This document shows, one piece after another, positions 13,455-59,598 of a stretch of 64,000 nt of DNA. Origin of the DNA: a phage. The translations under genes and the position numbers were made by a program. Position 1 is the stretch's first letter. Every line of letters begins with the position of its first letter. A model generated the notes under the pieces. It saw only the letters and a program-made list of their open reading frames with translations. It had not been told where the DNA came from and ran no database searches. The DNA lies in NCBI GenBank assembly GCA_024614665.1, contig GCA_024614665.1_4861.1; one strand, written 5' to 3'.

Positions 13455-14152
13455 CAGTAATCCCCCGTTGCCCCTATCGCAGTCGCTACTTTACTGGCAA
13501 CCTCGTCAACCGGAAGCACCACCTCGTCTTTCTTGCTCACAATCTCTGGTACTTCTTTGACATGTTCAACGGTCACGTCAAACTTCCGAGTATAACCGAC
13601 AAGTAACTTTGCCATATCTGCACGACTAACGAACTGTTGTTCTTCCGACAGATGTAACGACGTATCAAGTAGTCCAGAATGCATGAAGTTTTCAATGAGC
13701 TGGTCTTCTTCCGCTTTGAAGTCGTATCGCTCGTTCGGTGCAGCCACAAATGCATAACCGAAATACTTCCCCTCTTCCTGTTCAGGGCGTAACGATTTAA
13801 CTAACTCCTCAGCGTGTTCGCAGAAGTCCGCCAAAGTATAATCGTCAAGTGTGGCAACTGCGGTTTCTGTTACAATTTCACCGGTGTCGAGTTCAGTGAG
13901 GTGCATCACCCAAAGATGCCATGGTCGCGGTTGGTCGAACAGCCCACCGACTAACATATCTGTGGCGATAGCACGAATACGAGGACTTGCCGTAAAGTGA
14001 AAACCACGGCCCGCGTACGGCCCGAGGCGACGAATCGAACTGCCGATAAACGTGATACGATTCAGAGCGTTTTCAGCGACGGTGTGTGCCGTACGTTCTG
14101 TGGCAACTTTCGGGTTATACTTTTTGTTACGGGGTTTCTTTTGCTTAGCCAT
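13454..14152 (-). CDS. hypothetical protein, 232 aa
   Basis: ORF track; start overlaps upstream stop. Confidence 0.55.
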   Translation of the reverse strand: MAKQKKPRNKKYNPKVATERTAHTVAENALNRITFIGSSIRRLGPYAGRGFHFTASPRIRAIATDMLVGGLFDQPRPWHLWVMHLTELDTGEIVTETAVATLDDYTLADFCEHAEELVKSLRPEQEEGKYFGYAFVAAPNERYDFKAEEDQLIENFMHSGLLDTSLHLSEEQQFVSRADMAKLLVGYTRKFDVTVEHVKEVPEIVSKKDEVVLPVDEVASKVATAIGATGDY

Positions 14153-15168: not shown

Positions 15169-15474
15169 TTAAGCGACAACGCGTTTGCGTTTATCGACGA
15201 CTTTCTTGGTTGCTTTCGCTACCTTCTTAGCGGCAGGGATGGTATCAACCGGGGTGTCGGCTACCAAGGCACGTTCTACGCCGTCTGCGCGTAGAACACG
15301 CAGATTCTTCGCCTGTGGTAAACCTTTGAAAGTGATGGTCAAACCCGCGCGGAGACCTTGATACAGAAACCCTTGCAGGTTCAGTTTCTTGGCGGTTGTG
15401 GTGTCCTCACAACCTTTCTCCACGTACAGCAGAGTTGTACCTGCACGTTTAACAATAGTGTATTGCTTAGCCAT
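15169..15474 (-). CDS. small basic protein, 101 aa, possible nucleic-acid-binding
   Basis: Stand-alone gene between class-2 promoter motif and strong hairpin/U-tract terminator; Lys-rich C-terminus. Confidence 0.6.
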   Translation of the reverse strand: MAKQYTIVKRAGTTLLYVEKGCEDTTTAKKLNLQGFLYQGLRAGLTITFKGLPQAKNLRVLRADGVERALVADTPVDTIPAAKKVAKATKKVVDKRKRVVA

Positions 15475-21399: not shown

Positions 21400-21765
21400 C
21401 TACATCACTGCAGAAGGTTTACGTGCCATGACTTTAAGTCCCGTATCTCGTACCCGGATAGGACAATTATTCATGTAATCAATGCAGGATTCTATTTTGA
21501 AGCTGTGTCGACATTTACCGTTGATGGAACGGTAAACGATTTCGTAATTCAGGCGCAGTGTGTCGGCAACACGCATCAGAGTTTCGATAGTTACGGCTTT
21601 CTCACGTTCATTTTTAATCGCAGAGATTTGTGACGGTGAGCAGCCTACTAATAACGCGATGTCTTTCTGCGTAACGTCCTTCGCAGTAACACGCGTAATA
21701 ATGTAAGAAAGACGAACCAAAAACGTTTTCTTTGCCAACACAACGGCTTGATGTTTAAAACGCAT
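21400..21765 (-). CDS. helix-turn-helix DNA-binding protein (XRE-like), 121 aa
   Basis: QKDIALLVGCSPSQISAIKN resembles an HTH; first gene after class-1 promoter and conserved leader. Confidence 0.55.
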   Translation of the reverse strand: MRFKHQAVVLAKKTFLVRLSYIITRVTAKDVTQKDIALLVGCSPSQISAIKNEREKAVTIETLMRVADTLRLNYEIVYRSINGKCRHSFKIESCIDYMNNCPIRVRDTGLKVMARKPSAVM

Positions 21766-21814
21766 TAGAATACTCCTTTAGATTAATAGTCGATTAGAGA
21801 GTTTAACGACAACT

Positions 21815-21840
21815 CTCACTAAGGTAATATATATCTGAAA
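21815..21840 (-). promoter_or_regulatory. class-1 promoter-like motif
   Basis: Plus-strand CTCACTAAGGTAATATATATCTGAAA; upstream of HTH gene. Confidence 0.55.
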
Positions 21841-21896
21841 TTTAGTGGACTGGAAGCAAAAAGCATAGGACTGTTCTGATCTGTAAAAAAGACAAT

Positions 21897-22653: not shown

Positions 22654-23268
22654 TCACTTCACAAGCAGTATCTGCTTGCCAGCGATCCGTACCTCATCCC
22701 AGTTTAGATGTCTTGCAGCTGCACTAACTAAATCAACGCAGTTTGCCTCAGCAATCCAATCTTGACAAACACTCCGAATGAATTCAGGCTGCAGTAGAGC
22801 CATTGGCGTTGACTCTGAATAATCCTCTGGGGAGGGAATACGTGCAAAGTCCACCATCTGCTCCAGTTTACGAAGTTGTGTATGGAAGCGATAATAAAGA
22901 GTTTCTGTATGGCTTTCGCCGTTCTCTTCAACGAGAGTAATATTGATTGCGATACCAGTACGAGTATAGTCGTTTTTATCAACTTTGTACGTGGATGCGC
23001 TTAAGTTATAACCAAAGAACTTTATACCTACCTCGGCGTCAAACTCATCGTTGAGAATTTCGGTATACATATTGCTCAATTCGTGGGTACACGGACGAAC
23101 GTCGTAATAGTCGTCGCCTTCGAAAGGTGCGTATTGTGTATCTGGTAGAAGATTATTAAAAATCCAGTTTGGTAAACGTTGACGAAACTCTTCAGCAATC
23201 TTACGACGTTCGTCTGAATCGGTAGTGGTTGAGAGTGCAATGGCCGCGTCTACAATATTAGTAATCAT
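22654..23268 (-). CDS. hypothetical protein, 204 aa
   Basis: ORF downstream of class-1 promoter and conserved leader. Confidence 0.6.
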   Translation of the reverse strand: MITNIVDAAIALSTTTDSDERRKIAEEFRQRLPNWIFNNLLPDTQYAPFEGDDYYDVRPCTHELSNMYTEILNDEFDAEVGIKFFGYNLSASTYKVDKNDYTRTGIAINITLVEENGESHTETLYYRFHTQLRKLEQMVDFARIPSPEDYSESTPMALLQPEFIRSVCQDWIAEANCVDLVSAAARHLNWDEVRIAGKQILLVK

Positions 23269-23309
23269 AGTGAGTTCCTTAATGGTCGATTAAAAGAATA
23301 GGTCGTAGT

Positions 23310-23336
23310 CTCACTAAAGTAATATATATCTGAAAA
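23310..23336 (-). promoter_or_regulatory. class-1 promoter-like motif
   Basis: Plus-strand TCTCACTAAAGTAATATATATCTGAAA; directly after a terminator hairpin. Confidence 0.55.
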
Positions 23337-23348
23337 ATAATAGAGTCG

Positions 23349-50659: not shown

Positions 50660-50841
50660 TAGTAAATCTCCTGCTGCATTGGAAATACATTACCTGTCGG
50701 TGAGACAAGTAAAACTTGCGCGGTAACGTGAACGATTTCTTCTTCGTCCTGACGACGAACACTGTTAGTGAGATTATCCCACTCACGTTTAACACGCGGG
50801 TGAGATAAGAACTCGGCAAACTGCGCATCAGAAAAGTCCAT
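50659..50841 (-). CDS. hypothetical small protein, 60 aa
   Basis: ATG overlaps stop of the upstream membrane micro-protein (TAATG). Confidence 0.45.
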   Translation of the reverse strand: MDFSDAQFAEFLSHPRVKREWDNLTNSVRRQDEEEIVHVTAQVLLVSPTGNVFPMQQEIY

Positions 50842-50984
50842 TAGCCGCGACCTGTACACATGGCAACAGAGTTACCGTTATCGATGCACTTATTGTAATC
50901 TTGAGTTACAGTGATAGACAGTACCGCGAAAGCAACAACAGCAACGATGGCAAAGATGGCACGTTTATGGTTACGAGTTAACAT
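50841..50984 (-). CDS. small membrane protein, 47 aa (MLTRNHKRAIFAIVAVVAFAVLSITVTQDYNKCIDNGNSVAMCTGRG)
   Basis: First gene after class-1 promoter and conserved leader (AAAGGAGTATTGCC before ATG); one TM helix; not in ORF track. Confidence 0.5.
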   Translation of the reverse strand: MLTRNHKRAIFAIVAVVAFAVLSITVTQDYNKCIDNGNSVAMCTGRG

Positions 50985-51034
50985 GGCAATACTCCTTTAG
51001 ATTAATAGTCGATTGAGTTGATAGATTGTCTTCT

Positions 51035-51060
51035 ATCACCTAGGTAATATATATCTGAAA
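51035..51060 (-). promoter_or_regulatory. class-1 promoter-like motif
   Basis: Plus-strand ATCACCTAGGTAATATATATCTGAAA; upstream of small membrane gene. Confidence 0.55.
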
Positions 51061-51078
51061 TTATTTTTATTCAGAGTA

Positions 51079-51196
51079 CACCCTCTATAACGCTCTCAAA
51101 CGCGTTTTGAGAGCTTTTATCACTATAGAGGGTCGTTCTACCGTTAGAGTGGCTTTAGAAGGTTGTGAGTGCGTTTAGAGGGCTAAAATAAAGAGA
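51079..51196. promoter_or_regulatory. structured non-coding element: nested 9-bp inverted repeats followed by four TTAGAG(G)G-like direct repeats
   Basis: CCCTCTATA (51082-51090) pairs with TATAGAGGG (51124-51132); inner GCTCTCAAA (51092-51100) pairs with TTTGAGAGC (51106-51114); TAGAG repeats at about 51126, 51145, 51156, 51176. Confidence 0.45.
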
Positions 51197-51222
51197 CCTG
51201 GTCTCACAAGGAGACCAGGCAC
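51197..51222 (-). terminator. hairpin terminator
   Basis: CCTGGTCTC-ACAAG-GAGACCAGG then U-rich tract; downstream of 51227..52024. Confidence 0.55.
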
Positions 51223-51226
51223 ACAT

Positions 51227-52024
51227 TTACATCAAATCCAGGCTCTGTGAGACCGCAACTTCCGGTTCACTGATGCCGCTGGTCACTGACAATGTAAAGC
51301 GACGATCGTTAATCACTTCAACTGCTTCGCTCGCACGCAGTGAATACTTGTCGGCGATTGGCAGTACACTGTTATCGTTCTGCGGCGGCAGAATCTGTGC
51401 CGGGAACGGAATGTACGAGTTGAAAGTGATATACGGACCGACTTGCATCATCGGGAACACTTCGTTCACGTTATTCGACATCCCTTCATCCGAAGAGATA
51501 ACGGAGTGACGCAGACAGGCACGCAGGCCAACGGTGTACTCCGGATCGCGCGATTCGCCGATCAGTGCGAAACGGAACACATTGAAATCGTAGTCGTCTG
51601 CAGCGAAGTGCTCTGGCAGGATACGCTGTACGTATTCAGGGTAAGTGGTCACGTCACCCGGAATAACATTCACGGCGAGTTTCTGTGCCAGGAAATACGC
51701 ATTCGCGAAACCGTACTGACCCGCCAGCGCAGCTGAAATCGGTGCAGTGGTTACGCAGTGCAGGAACAAGTGATAACCCAGCCCGCCTTTATCTTCGATT
51801 GCCAGGTCCTTCTTACTCTGCACACCGTCAGCAGTATAAATAACTGCCACTGTCTTATCCAACGTCGATGCCATGACAAAATCCAACTGCACCTCACCGC
51901 TCTGCGGTAGTACCTTAACCAGGCGATCCCAGAGCTTGGTCGGTTTGGTGAAGTTAGCGGCTTCGTACGCATCAATGTCGAGAACAGTTTGGCCGGTCAT
52001 GCGAAAGGTGTGAATCGCTTTCAT
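51227..52024 (-). CDS. hypothetical protein, 265 aa
   Basis: ORF with CTTAAGGAA SD; hairpin terminator 51197..51222. Confidence 0.55.
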   Translation of the reverse strand: MKAIHTFRMTGQTVLDIDAYEAANFTKPTKLWDRLVKVLPQSGEVQLDFVMASTLDKTVAVIYTADGVQSKKDLAIEDKGGLGYHLFLHCVTTAPISAALAGQYGFANAYFLAQKLAVNVIPGDVTTYPEYVQRILPEHFAADDYDFNVFRFALIGESRDPEYTVGLRACLRHSVISSDEGMSNNVNEVFPMMQVGPYITFNSYIPFPAQILPPQNDNSVLPIADKYSLRASEAVEVINDRRFTLSVTSGISEPEVAVSQSLDLM

Positions 52025-58739: not shown

Positions 58740-59496
58740 CTGCTGGTTCTTCAGCGGTTTTCACTTCAACTGGTTTCATCAGCGAGTTCGCACAGTCGAA
58801 GATAGCATCCAGGAAACCACGGAACGGCTTCATGGCTTCACGCTGGGCGTTCTGACGTTCTTCTTCAATTGCTTCTTCTTGCGCCTGAATTTCTTCAGCA
58901 GTCAGCTCCGGGTGTTCCGTCATGCTTTCTGCCAGGGTCATCACTTTCGGCTGCGCATTCCGAATCGGAATACGGCGGATGACCTTGGTGATATTCCCGA
59001 GCTTCATGCCACCCAGCGCGGTTTCGAACAGCGTACCGAAATCTTGCAGTGGGTCTTCGCTGATTTCCAGTACCGCCGGAGTCGCAACCAGACCAAAGGC
59101 AATGACCAATTCAACAGCAGTGTCAGTGACGTGCACAGCGAACGGGGTGTCTTCCATCTGCAGGTAATTGTTACCATTATAGGTCACCGGAATGAATTTG
59201 ATTTCTTCCCCTTTCTTCAGGCGCAGTGTGTCGACTGCGGCTTTGTACTGAACTTCGTACAGTTCCGGTTTAACACCGTCAACGTTATCCAGTGTAAAGA
59301 GCAGGTCGCCAACCGCCATACGGCGCGGCAGTTTGCGTTTGTTGATTTCGCGCAGCCAGACTTGTAAGCCGGTGAATTGAATTGGGGACAGTATAATTTT
59401 AAAGCCGTTGGTTGCTTGCAGGATAGCACCGTCGTCTTCGCTACGTTCGATAGAGCCATTAGCCAGAGTAAGCAGATTGATAGTTTTCATTTTCAT
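58735..59496 (-). CDS. hypothetical protein, 253 aa
   Basis: Downstream of class-1 promoter motif and leader. Confidence 0.6.
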   Translation of the reverse strand: MKMKTINLLTLANGSIERSEDDGAILQATNGFKIILSPIQFTGLQVWLREINKRKLPRRMAVGDLLFTLDNVDGVKPELYEVQYKAAVDTLRLKKGEEIKFIPVTYNGNNYLQMEDTPFAVHVTDTAVELVIAFGLVATPAVLEISEDPLQDFGTLFETALGGMKLGNITKVIRRIPIRNAQPKVMTLAESMTEHPELTAEEIQAQEEAIEEERQNAQREAMKPFRGFLDAIFDCANSLMKPVEVKTAEEPAA

Positions 59497-59537
59497 ATTC
59501 CTTAAGTGATAGTCGGTTAAAAGATTACCAATGCAAT

Positions 59538-59563
59538 CTCACCTAGGTAATATATATCTGAAA
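59538..59563 (-). promoter_or_regulatory. class-1 promoter-like motif
   Basis: Plus-strand CTCACCTAGGTAATATATATCTGAAA; upstream of 58735..59496. Confidence 0.55.
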
Positions 59564-59598
59564 TCTTTTCTAATCTGAGACAAAAAAAGAAAGGGTAA

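Follow-up and report, generated by a model that had tools for sequence, protein, structure and literature searches.

The window analysed here, a 64-kb stretch of phage DNA, is oriented as the reverse complement of an SPN3US-like jumbo phage (SPN3US is a giant Salmonella phage), and the element described below is located between the homologues of gp65 and gp66 (SPN3US numbering). The features flanking the element are the following.

51227..52024, minus strand: gp65 homologue (265 aa), the upstream gene, with 100% amino acid identity to SPN3US gp65
51186..51222, minus strand: intrinsic terminator that closes the gp65 transcription unit (10-bp stem, then a T-run)
51035..51060, minus strand: early promoter of the class TTTCAGATATATATTACCTAGGTGA, with the conserved motif AGATATATATTACyT..GTGA
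51020..51037, minus strand: stem-loop GATAGA...TCTATC at the predicted 5' end of the early transcript
50841..50984, minus strand: gp66 homologue, a 47-aa hydrophobic protein and the first gene of the early operon

The gp65 homologue, for which no Pfam family was found, is the final gene of a run containing virion structural genes, and the terminator hairpin of its transcription unit was kept, with sequence changes, in all relatives compared. The early-promoter motif occurs five times in the window and seven or eight times in SPN3US, always ahead of a gene start. Jumbo-phage early promoters have been described (PMC7598289) as AT-rich motifs of ~10 nt, strongly conserved ahead of operons presumed to be early, and the motif at 51035-51060 has these features of an early (virion RNA polymerase) promoter; its use by the virion RNA polymerase is presumed from that review. 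The stems found at the other copies of the promoter differ in sequence while retaining complementarity. The small homologues of gp66-gp70, as well as the basic protein encoded at 15169-15474, are without a Pfam family. Both a terminator scan, with its call at 51196-51220 on the minus strand, and the copies of the promoter motif bore out the position between a terminator and an early promoter that was first noted from the letters of the DNA, and the element indeed encodes nothing obvious, with no ORF or Rfam family present in it and nothing found in a tRNA scan.

The sequence-only reading of this interval had pointed to two nested 9-bp perfect inverted repeats, capable of forming a cruciform, and to four direct repeats. 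These features are laid out as follows.

51080-51089 and 51124-51133: outer inverted repeat, 10 bp, perfect (ACCCTCTATA / TATAGAGGGT)
51092-51100 and 51106-51114: inner inverted repeat, 9 bp, perfect, with a 5-nt loop (GCTCTCAAA / TTTGAGAGC)
51126, 51145, 51156 and 51176: starts of the TAGAG-type repeat cores

The outer repeat is perfect as described, its length being 10 bp and not 9 bp; the inner repeat is nested within it, and the four TAGAG-type repeats were recovered at spacings of 19, 11 and 20 bp. The window contains 37 perfect inverted repeats with arms of 9 bp or more and loops of up to 40 nt, as compared to 8.1 +/- 2.9 in shuffles, and three nested pairs of such repeats were seen in the window versus 0 in 100 shuffles. 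The sequence TAGAGGG occurs 4 times in the window against 3.7 expected, with 3/4 of the copies inside the ~100-bp element; neither TAGAGGG nor GCGYTNNAGAG is enriched window-wide, and their clustering alone is significant.

Examination of related genomes spoke against the cruciform-capable structure as the selected feature. The perfect outer arm is a minority allele, reading CTATAG in the window versus CTAAAG in five relatives; in these, position 51120..51133 reads CTTTAGAGGG and the outer palindrome is broken. The inner arms carry uncompensated changes in MET_P1_082, SPFM2 and SPFM16, with 2/9 inner pairs lost in MET_P1_082. In other jumbo genera (ChrisDB, SNUABM9, Caitlin, Asesino, phiEaH2, Machina, Wellington, SPAsTU, SNUABM29, SNUABM4/6/11 and L078/L080) the palindrome is absent and the repeat array is kept. 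The palindromes, taken literally, are therefore not conserved among related genomes, whereas the underlying repeat element is strongly conserved.

As judged from these comparisons, the conserved feature is a ~40-bp array composed of an A-tract and three units of 10-11 bp, with the unit consensus sequences CGCTYAGAAY, GCGWTWYAGA and GCGTTTTAGAGGGTA (general type GCG-YT-n-AGAG). In the window, four or five units in inverted orientation lie directly against three sense-strand ones. We scored the units with a position weight matrix made solely from arrays of other phage genera and applied to the whole window.

51076..51123, minus strand: core element, A-tract plus three sense units, reading towards the early promoter; in order, GTGATAAAA, unit 1 GCTCTCAAAAC (51114 to 51104), unit 2 GCGTTTGAGA (51103 to 51094), unit 3 GCGTTATAGAGGG (51093 to 51081), then TGTAC
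51102..51114, plus strand: inverted unit GCGTTTTGAGAGC, 10.5 bits, the right arm of the inner palindrome, overlapping sense unit 1
51120..51133, plus strand: inverted unit TCACTATAGAGGGT, 6.5 bits, the right arm of the outer palindrome
51141..51163, plus strand: two weaker inverted units, CCGTTAGAGTGG and GGCTTTAGAAGG, the second with 7.2 bits and the first below the 6-bit threshold
51171..51183, plus strand: inverted unit GCGTTTAGAGGGC, 15.2 bits, the top-scoring site of the 64 kb with both strands counted

The nested palindromes arise because sense units and inverted units sit head-to-head, and are, on this reading of the layout, a by-product of back-to-back array copies. The two best matches to the matrix in the whole window both fall inside the element, and four matches of at least 10 bits occur within 120 bp, a number reached in 0/30 Markov genomes. 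A search with nhmmer, using a profile built from jumbo relatives, matched the window at 51133-51078 (E = 1.4e-9). A profile of non-jumbo elements only, whose members had been gathered with patterns from SPN3US site 2 (units 2-3), returned 51119-51079 on the minus strand (E = 4.1e-8) as its sole significant match in the window. Among close relatives the unit at 51171..51183 is invariant, bar one change in MET_P1, and the weaker inverted units at 51141..51163 are partly variable. The spacing of the units, 10-11 bp, corresponds to about one helical turn, and units are present on both strands in the window, so that a DNA-binding site fits better than an RNA. Each of the three core units carries its own position-specific consensus, and the units may therefore be non-equivalent binding sites.

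The array lies at the equivalent locus in several genera, where the intergenic DNA around it is unalignable and gp65 is just 47-58% identical, suggesting that the array is either under selection or recently exchanged. By manual count across the jumbo relatives it follows a terminator and lies 19-30 nt upstream of the early promoter, a distance that grows up to ~480 nt where an Nlig-Ia gene is inserted between the two; this variable distance disfavours an activator of fixed geometry. At least three genera include both carriers and non-carriers of this optional solo Nlig-Ia gene, which, wherever it occurs, fills precisely the interval from array to early promoter, with clean junctions, and in five jumbo phages the array ends 8-22 nt before its ATG. 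We considered whether this optional gene encodes a DNA-binding protein or a homing endonuclease and rejected both, as it corresponds to a solo Nlig-Ia NAD-binding domain. In the jumbo contigs L078 and L080 the gp66 homologue likewise follows the array and the promoter. SPN3US carries a second copy of the array at 137.5 kb, spanning 137,540-137,581, which is followed by a terminator and not by a promoter, and this copy is kept in Erskinevirus and other Seoulvirus phages without any cassette. Within the window, the array was found at just one of the five early promoters and does not belong to the repeated promoter cassette.

Near-identical arrays were also found in the left terminal repeats of T5-like phages, in Felix O1-like phages, by the origin of IncX plasmids, in a Mob plasmid and in phage-like islands, and their occurrence in such unrelated elements implies horizontal movement. 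A set of 19 arrays, drawn from jumbo phages, phages of the T5-like and Felix O1-like groups, plasmids (IncX and Mob) and islands, aligns with the window sequence without a gap in the core. The consensus across elements is TAAAA-nCnCTCAGAAn-GCGTTACAGA-GCGTTTTAGAgGGTAT, in which the columns GC..AG.GCGT are invariant. The sites are noncoding and located at boundaries of transcription units, between terminator and promoter in the window and comparably in T5-like phages, IncX plasmids and islands; in other elements, sigma-70-like promoters lie 40-130 nt further downstream of the array. Two arrays are found in IncX1 within ~0.8 kb of the plasmid's origin; they follow rep, the 22-bp iterons, two DnaA boxes and a hairpin of the ColE1 type that we take to be a primosome assembly site, and the array of the Mob plasmid is situated ~190 bp upstream of rep. 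In T5-like phages the array comes after a hairpin and T-run, read as the terminator of the last pre-early gene, and before an SOS-box-like palindrome and DnaA boxes. In some elements the array ends 8-22 nt before a start codon (a 65-aa ORF in L037/L041 and a DnaB-like ORF in L077), and it may therefore be transcribed there; in Felix O1-like phages and in contig L044 the downstream genes converge on it.

In T5-like phages the array falls in the untranslated part of the left terminal repeat that in T5 has been named 'Repeat Region 3', the region of the injection stop signal (Davison, bioRxiv 10.1101/866236). Many named repeats and DnaA boxes are given for this terminal repeat in the available part of that preprint, and this array is not among them. 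A description of the array was likewise absent from the accessible portions of the literature that we searched on SPN3US promoters, the T5 injection stop signal, Felix O1 repeats and exact 14-17-mers of the array, so that as a cross-element family it apparently has no name so far. The exact two-unit pattern occurs in 11 contigs among representative genomes of 185,579 species, as compared to ~4 estimated by chance, and the BLAST matches in E. coli were plasmids or unannotated island-like DNA. This rarity disfavours an operator of the host chromosome, with the proviso that BLAST is blind to degenerate operator sites, so that a host factor may still be involved.

The window element is most likely a protein-binding DNA array. 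With a probability of roughly 45%, we read it as a cis-acting array that marks or controls the boundary between the gp65 terminator and the gp66 promoter. The SPN3US-like lineage has added four or five units of opposite orientation abutting the three-unit core. A sequence-specific protein would occupy the core units head-to-tail, one for each turn of the helix, and in this lineage it would also span the inverted sets as a higher-order complex with two-fold symmetry. Once bound, the array would act at this boundary, from the terminator of the gp65 structural genes to the early promoter of the gp66 operon, possibly as an operator or roadblock affecting how often transcription starts at the promoter or reads through into it. 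Of the three roles that were proposed at the outset, the regulator-binding array is the one that fits the comparative data; a replication origin and a small structured RNA were left unsupported, as discussed below.

Arrays of phased repeats bound by small dimeric or winged-helix proteins are well known, including the 11-bp repeats of R1 parC bound by ParR, the heptads bound by the pSM19035 omega protein, the Cox boxes of P2, and the direct repeats bound by regulators of the OmpR/PhoB/ArcA type. The present array shares with these a unit of about one helical turn, at least three units in tandem, a tolerance of both direct and inverted orientation, and a location by promoters and, in plasmids, by maintenance or replication functions. 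It differs from them in that a neighbouring cognate gene is lacking, the units are distinct, and the sequence is common to unrelated phages and plasmids. The pi-protein iterons of R6K/IncX are likewise tandem repeats in a replication region, but they are separate 22-bp repeats near rep, whereas the array units are half as long and no Rep is shared with the phages. The likeness to T5 is also partial, since jumbo phages, unlike T5, do not inject their DNA in two steps. In phage T4, PeSL cassettes consist of an early promoter and a stem-loop; the promoter adjacent to the array (and not the array itself) resembles these, as a repeated promoter followed by a stem-loop of variable sequence and flanking optional genes, although the promoter type differs, here being presumably of the virion RNA polymerase class. 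Finally, boxA, the NusB/NusE site, reads CGCTCTTTAACAA in rrn and CGCTCTTA in the lambda nut sites, and by inspection the reverse complements of units, CGCTCTGTAACGC and CGCTCTAAAACGC, share CGCTCT..AAC with it. However, this likeness is found on the antisense strand relative to the flanking genes, and the U-run, which is important for NusB/E binding, is replaced in the array; use of Nus factors is not known for the RNA polymerases of jumbo phages.

No sigma-70 promoter (-35/-10 with 16-18 nt spacing) was found in 50800-51400, and manual reading of the array consensus revealed no consistent -35/-10 pair and no sigma-E, sigma-54 or sigma-28 motif. DnaA, LexA and IHF boxes near the arrays showed weak enrichment over non-independent loci (~2-fold for DnaA). 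Set beside the consensus sequences of the marbox, Fis, IHF, Lrp, PhoP, OmpR, ArcA and boxA, the array resembles each in part only. An accessory site for Xer recombination (cer/psi-type), which would have an XerC arm, a spacer of 6-8 bp and an XerD arm beside it, was rejected outside one plasmid family: a core site, with 1 mismatch in total, is present in the 5.7-kb Mob plasmid only, and L022, a member of the SPN3US clade identical to the window over the stretch, has 9 mismatches to it. A CRISPR mini-array was discarded as well, the units being contiguous, with none of the unique ~30-nt spacers of such arrays, and their likeness to the Cas9-repeat GTTTTAGAGCTA limited to 9-13 nt.

It is unlikely, in our estimate, that the array acts at the level of RNA, as a 5' leader or 3' tail influencing translation or stability (for example through U-rich or Shine-Dalgarno-like repeats recruiting S1 or a repressor), with the inverted copies in the window folding the transcript into a long hairpin. 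The array does mostly read in the direction of the flanking genes, lies 8-22 nt before ATGs with unit 3 giving a Shine-Dalgarno-like GAGG, and sits in a window region that folds well (z = -4.6); but in the window, in T5-like phages and in islands it is outside the predicted mRNA, downstream of the terminator and upstream of the promoter, and the convergence of genes on it in Felix O1-like phages and L044 also argues against such a role. By inspection, members do not share a hairpin register. Neither palindrome shows compensation for the changes in its arms, and no helix was found to be maintained through paired substitutions. Searches against Rfam retrieved a chance miRNA match alone for the window region (E = 0.88) and nothing at E <= 0.1 for seven loci with canonical arrays. 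The small structured RNA suggested at first thus has neither an Rfam match nor a conserved or covarying helix behind it. A hairpin between units 1 and 2 (ATCGC...GCGAT) was also rejected, as A-U to U-A swaps were few and equally many members break the pairing. For a structural palindrome, be it a DNA cruciform or a bidirectional or antisense terminator that halts antisense transcription, we see very little chance: the nested perfect palindromes did not occur in 100 shuffles, and the terminator scan called the inner hairpin (51092-51114) with TTTTAT as terminator-like on the plus strand, but the nearest plus-strand gene end is 2.6 kb away, the hairpin is absent or weakened in relatives, and the outer-arm allele, the pairs lost in MET_P1_082 and the palindrome-free genera described above all speak against it.

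A replication origin or origin-accessory site, with iteron-like repeats next to an AT-rich transcribed region, also appears improbable. Over the whole SPN3US genome, cumulative GC and AT skew track gene orientation and show no inflection near 65 kb, the element lying at 65.3 kb, and the second copy at 137.5 kb means that the element occurs at least twice and is not unique in that genome, unlike what is expected of an origin. Units of 10-11 bp contrast with the 17-22 bp of classical iterons, of which IncX has separate, genuine ones; the Nlig-Ia insertion separates the array from the promoter and its AT-rich surroundings; DnaA boxes are enriched just ~2-fold, over non-independent loci; and no Rep-like gene that could serve as cognate initiator was recognised by Pfam among the neighbouring proteins. 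Set against this, an AT-rich stretch and a promoter adjoin the repeats, a layout that recalls lambda ori and T4 oriE/oriF; in T5-like phages DnaA boxes lie nearby; and the plasmid members are found beside replication functions (IncX1 and the Mob plasmid), so that an origin-accessory role may apply given the plasmid copies next to origins. We likewise give little credence to a functionless hitch-hiking or recombination-linker sequence, a conserved left flank of an exchangeable Nlig-Ia cassette that would be kept through homologous exchange in the flanks when phages co-infect a cell. The presence or absence of Nlig-Ia in at least three genera with clean junctions at the array would fit such a linker, as would the horizontal movement implied by near-identical arrays in unrelated elements; however, gene-less lineages of four genera keep the array amid diverged surroundings, the units were amplified in the SPN3US lineage, and the 137.5-kb copy is conserved in the absence of any cassette.

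Regarding the protein that would occupy the protein-binding array, the product of 21400-21765 (the gp101 homologue) is a helix-turn-helix protein of the Cro/C1 type that may bind the array locally. Its homologues occur in jumbo phages only, and it therefore cannot explain the arrays in T5-like phages or plasmids. A more tentative reading, doubtful but possible, is that the ~40-bp array is a hitherto unrecognised cis-element, a DNA or RNA signal, kept by unrelated virulent phages (SPN3US-like jumbo, T5-like and Felix O1-like), by IncX and small plasmids and by phage-like islands of Enterobacterales via one conserved host component; this could be a factor of the nucleoid, of replication or of transcription, or a defence protein that is decoyed, with the window holding an amplified and inverted version specific to its lineage. 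The aba DNA element, which neutralises BstA, is a model for such a decoy. From the biology of this phage group, a host binder would seem hard to square with the DNA of a nucleus-forming jumbo phage.

The eye-catching palindrome is thus secondary, and the focus shifts to the repeat units themselves. The cis-regulatory DNA of nucleus-forming jumbo phages is little known beyond the early-promoter motif, and the array is a conserved candidate adjoining one such promoter. The same 40-bp sequence recurs at well-studied sites without an assigned function, among them the T5 injection-stop-signal region and the origin side of IncX plasmids, and its recurrence at such sites points to a shared mechanism, which may involve a host factor, a decoy for defence proteins or an element that marks boundaries.

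Over the 601 bp around the element, the window shares 99.8% identity with Enterobacteria phage SEGD1 and 99.2% with Salmonella phage SPN3US, both 240-kb jumbo phages of Seoulvirus, in reverse orientation, and in SPN3US numbering the element lies between gp65 and gp66. Since the flanking genes, like nearly all genes of the window, are on the - strand, we took this strand as the reading strand of the element, along which the locus is arranged as follows.

52024 to 51227, - strand: gp65 homologue, 5' of the element
51220 to 51196, - strand: strong intrinsic terminator with T-run (terminator scan)
About 115 nt between terminator and promoter: non-coding DNA, the element
51060 to 51035, - strand: early-promoter motif TTTCAGATATATATTACCTAGGTGA
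Downstream of the promoter, - strand: short stem-loop, conserved AATCGACTATTA box and Shine-Dalgarno sequence
Start at 50984, - strand: gp66 homologue, 47 aa

A sequence-only reading had described nested palindromes and four direct repeats here, and all the features it described were found. The inner inverted repeat (51092-51100 / 51106-51114) is perfect over 9 bp; the outer one (51080-51089 / 51124-51133) is also perfect, but spans 10 bp and not 9 bp. The window contains three nested pairs of perfect inverted repeats 9 bp or longer, 100 shuffles contain none, and the pattern is not due to chance. The four TAGAG-type repeats (cores at 51126, 51145, 51156 and 51176) are present as well, but what had been taken for + strand direct repeats are extra, inverted copies of the unit of a sense-strand array, whose ~40-bp core consists of an A-tract and three units of 10-11 bp (units 1-3). 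TAGAGGG is not over-represented in the window (4 copies versus 3.7 expected), with three of the four copies inside the element's 100 bp.

The palindromes are not conserved in relatives, where their arms are altered without compensation or, at greater distance, no palindrome exists. Window CCCTCTATAG reads CCCTCTAAAG in five close relatives (SPN3US, MET_P1_082, SPFM2, SPFM16 and SaP7), none with a matching change in the opposite outer arm, so that the window's perfect outer palindrome represents a single-base minority allele. In the inner arm GCTCTCAAA is replaced by GTGCTCAAA in MET_P1_082 and by TTTGAGGGC in SPFM2 and SPFM16, likewise without a compensating change. Distant relatives, whose gp65 proteins are 47-58% identical and whose intergenic DNA is unalignable outside the array, carry instead 3-4 sense-strand direct repeats in tandem (for example GCGCTTAGAGA GCGTCTGAGG GCGTTATAGAGGGT in ChrisDB), which the window sense strand, GCTCTCAAAAC GCGTTTGAGA GCGTTATAGAGGGT, matches unit by unit in the alignment. 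Complementarity of unit 1 with unit 2 arises from three substitutions and gives the inner palindrome; in the outer one, unit 3 is opposed to an inverted unit.

Directly after the gp65 terminator, the Seoulvirus phages SPAsTU (L006:1952-2122, - strand) and SNUABM29 (L012:1985-2160) have a degenerate second sense-strand array reading GCAGTTAGAC TGCTTACAGC AGTTTTATTCC, and the SPN3US clade has inverted units in the same position. Paired arrays thus seem to be common and to differ only in relative orientation.

A gapped position weight matrix was built from 25 units of non-Seoulvirus arrays. Scanned over both strands of the 64 kb, it has its top two matches inside the element (51171-51181, + strand, 15.2 bits; 51082-51093, - strand, 14.7 bits). 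It also places four matches scoring 10 bits or higher in a span of 120 bp; this is the maximum in the SPN3US genome and was reached by none of 30 Markov-simulated genomes. With nhmmer, a profile of the arrays of ten relatives had its sole significant window match at 51133-51078 (- strand, E = 1.4e-9). A profile of non-jumbo members only gave one significant window site (51119-51079, - strand, E = 4.1e-8) and recovered both known array copies in SPN3US. Its members had been gathered with patterns derived from the second SPN3US copy, units 2-3; neither the A-tract nor unit 1 formed part of these patterns, and window unit 3 does not fit them. The profile's weak secondary match at 14058-14073 (+ strand, 16 nt, E = 0.011) is probably due to chance.

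The second canonical array of SPN3US lies outside the window at 137,543-137,580 (ACGCTTTTAGAGA GCGTTACAGA GCGTTTTAGAGGGT; E = 5e-7), flanked by the stop codon of gp158 and a bidirectional terminator, in a region also matched by BLAST in other Seoulvirus and in Erskinevirus phages. It is preceded by ATTTATCATCT (SPN3US section L009:37525-37581, SPN3US 137,525-137,581), and Machinavirus arrays are preceded by a related ATTTATCGTCT. Degenerate copies (~240,035-240,075 and ~240,166-240,190) occur in ~1.7 kb of non-coding DNA at the SPN3US record ends, also outside the window. These ends (SPN3US sections L011:39882-40413 and L007:1-1185) hold an AT-rich palindromic stretch, positions 101-210, between GCGTGCGCGTGCGCAC-type GC-rich repeats, and are a stronger origin or packaging-region candidate than the element itself.

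BLAST of the second SPN3US copy retrieved upwards of 100 unrelated phages with 85-94% identity across 28-39 nt, such cross-element matches being short and the loci inspected being non-independent samples. In T5-like phages AAACGCGTTAGAATGCGTTACAGAGCGTTTTAGAGC lies within the left terminal repeat, in its untranslated part, just 3' of a hairpin and T-run, which we interpret as terminating the last pre-early gene. This untranslated region is discussed as the T5 injection stop signal in a preprint (Davison, bioRxiv 10.1101/866236). In T5-like saus132 (L027:1495-1690, left terminal repeat), an SOS-box-like palindrome, ACTGTATAAATATACAGTA, lies within 30 nt of the array and is followed by DnaA boxes, TGTGGATAA. 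In the Felix O1-like phage radambza, four units lie in repeat-rich non-coding DNA annotated only as 'repeat_region'. IncX1 plasmid p54PM3 (L056:2080-3340) carries two arrays ~180 bp apart. On one side of them is its origin region (rep, iterons of 22 bp, two DnaA boxes and a ColE1-like hairpin, which we take to be a primosome assembly site), on the other the promoter of the stbDE toxin-antitoxin genes. A tRNA-Gly-integrated island with a capsid gene has 5-6 units ~100 nt upstream of a sigma-70-like promoter. The 5.7-kb Mob plasmid pSTEC2018_607-j has one array ~190 bp upstream of rep, abutting (L028:5497-5565) a near-perfect XerC/XerD core, GGTACGTACAA-GAGGAG-TTATGGTAAAT. No XerC/XerD core was found at any other array scanned, and a Xer site was rejected as the general identity, the core being limited to one plasmid family.

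Exact two-unit patterns occur in 15 and 34 IMG/VR contigs, with a few contigs common to both sets, and in 11 contigs among representative genomes of 185,579 species, where ~4 are expected by chance (estimate). BLAST matched 1010 of 72,556 PLSDB plasmids (E <= 1), mostly of 30-50 kb and with one typed, as IncX1, and 916 of 5,426 complete E. coli genomes, a loose count because E was allowed up to 10. Twenty arrays from all sources align without a gap in the core, giving the consensus TAAAA-nCnCTCAGAAn-GCGTTACAGA-GCGTTTTAGAgGGTAT with invariant columns GC..AG.GCGT. A name or description of the array was not found in the literature searched, which excluded most subscription journals; six exact array 14-17-mers had no occurrence in indexed papers, and the array is absent from the parts consulted of the Davison preprint on T5 untranslated repeats and of the Felix O1 genome paper.

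Among the jumbo phages compared, the gp65-gp66 locus occurs in three states. In Derbicusvirus (Phobos, CR5, EarlPhillipIV) there is no array, and the early promoter comes immediately after the terminator. In Machina, Wellington, phiEaH2, Asesino, ChrisDB, SNUABM9, Caitlin, the SPN3US clade and jumbo-phage contigs L078 and L080, the array ends ~19-30 nt (hand count) 5' of the promoter. In SPAsTU, SNUABM29, SNUABM11, SNUABM6 and SNUABM4, an ORF of 131-137 aa lies between the two (L006:1557-1961, - strand; L012:2149-2544; L014:2108-2503; L017:2132-2545; L018:2155-2565). Its ATG is 8-10 nt 3' of unit 3 in SPAsTU, SNUABM29 and SNUABM4, and its annotated start appears to be inside the array in SNUABM11 and SNUABM6. 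This ORF encodes a solo Nlig-Ia domain (PF22745, E = 1e-22 to 1e-28), a phage-specific stand-alone NAD-binding domain (PMC9503650), rather than a DNA-binding protein or homing endonuclease; in two records it is annotated as 'putative DNA ligase'. In each of at least three genera it can be present or absent, the array being retained either way. Some Seoulvirus, Machinavirus and Wellingtonvirus members have the gene exactly between array and early promoter, and others lack it.

The 'class-1 promoter' noted beside the element belongs to a set of five near-identical motifs in the window, each within a promoter and stem-loop cassette.

2600-2700, - strand: cassette with promoter copy at 2689
21740-21842, - strand: cassette with promoter copy at 21831
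23240-23337, - strand: cassette with promoter copy at 23326
50965-51062, - strand: cassette with promoter copy at 51051
59465-59565, - strand: cassette with promoter copy at 59554

SPN3US has 7-8 copies of the motif, and these, like the window copies, all lie upstream of a gene start. The virion RNA polymerase of jumbo phages uses early promoters described as an AT-rich, highly conserved motif of ~10 nt (PMC7598289), and by analogy the motif flanking the element fits such a promoter. Each copy, AGATATATATTACyT..GTGA, is followed by a 6-8-bp stem-loop, a conserved AATCGACyATTA box and a Shine-Dalgarno sequence; the stems vary between copies with complementarity kept (GAGAGTTAA/TTAACTCT, GAGAGTT/AACTCTC, GATAGA/TCTATC, AGATTGC/GTAATCT), and the cassette is reminiscent of the T4 PeSL elements. 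SPFM2 (L023) has a 27-bp tandem duplication of the promoter, CAGATATATATTACCTAGGTGATAGAAG, aligned to window 51035-51060, and SPFM16 has a different sequence 3' of the promoter.

Our tentative reading, with a probability of roughly 0.45, is that the element may be a sequence-specific DNA-binding site, a boundary or operator at the early promoter. Such a site fits better than an RNA or a cruciform because the units repeat every 10-11 bp, and also because both unit orientations are tolerated, the array lies outside the predicted transcripts (after the terminator and before the promoter) and no pairing is conserved. On these grounds an RNA-level leader or tail element is unlikely, even with the array co-oriented with genes and start codons 8-22 nt 3' of unit 3 in some members. 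The small structured RNA suggested earlier had no Rfam match at the window element, and seven loci with canonical arrays gave no Rfam family; neither a tRNA at the element nor a sigma-70 promoter in it was found. A structural palindrome or terminator is very improbable. The terminator scan does call the inner hairpin, with a T-run, on the + strand, but no gene is there for it to terminate and the hairpin is not conserved.

The plasmid and T5 neighbourhoods of the arrays would suit an origin-accessory site, which we consider distinctly unlikely; the GC skew gave no origin signal for the replication origin that had been proposed. A functionless cassette flank or recombination linker is improbable too, and the strong conservation of the array amid otherwise divergent spacers again favours a DNA-binding site. 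The window's Cro/C1-type HTH protein is the gp101 homologue; its homologues are restricted to jumbo phages, so that it is ruled out as the binder for the whole array family, although it could be a local binder.

If the array is a DNA-binding site, a putative protein would occupy it with one protomer per helical turn. The core three-unit array would read towards the early promoter, the inverted set would be a lineage-specific expansion, and the two together would likely initiate assembly of a larger symmetric complex. The position of the element, where a structural-gene unit meets an early operon, is suggestive of a boundary or an operator, and when bound the array could stop read-through or tune the early promoter. 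The variable promoter distance (19-30 nt; ~480 nt with Nlig-Ia) argues against a fixed-geometry activator, and no promoter lies 3' of the second SPN3US array. Phased short-repeat binding arrays are of a familiar kind; for a single specific 40-bp sequence to recur in virulent phages, plasmids and islands unrelated to one another is unusual, and the sequence appears undescribed in the literature searched.
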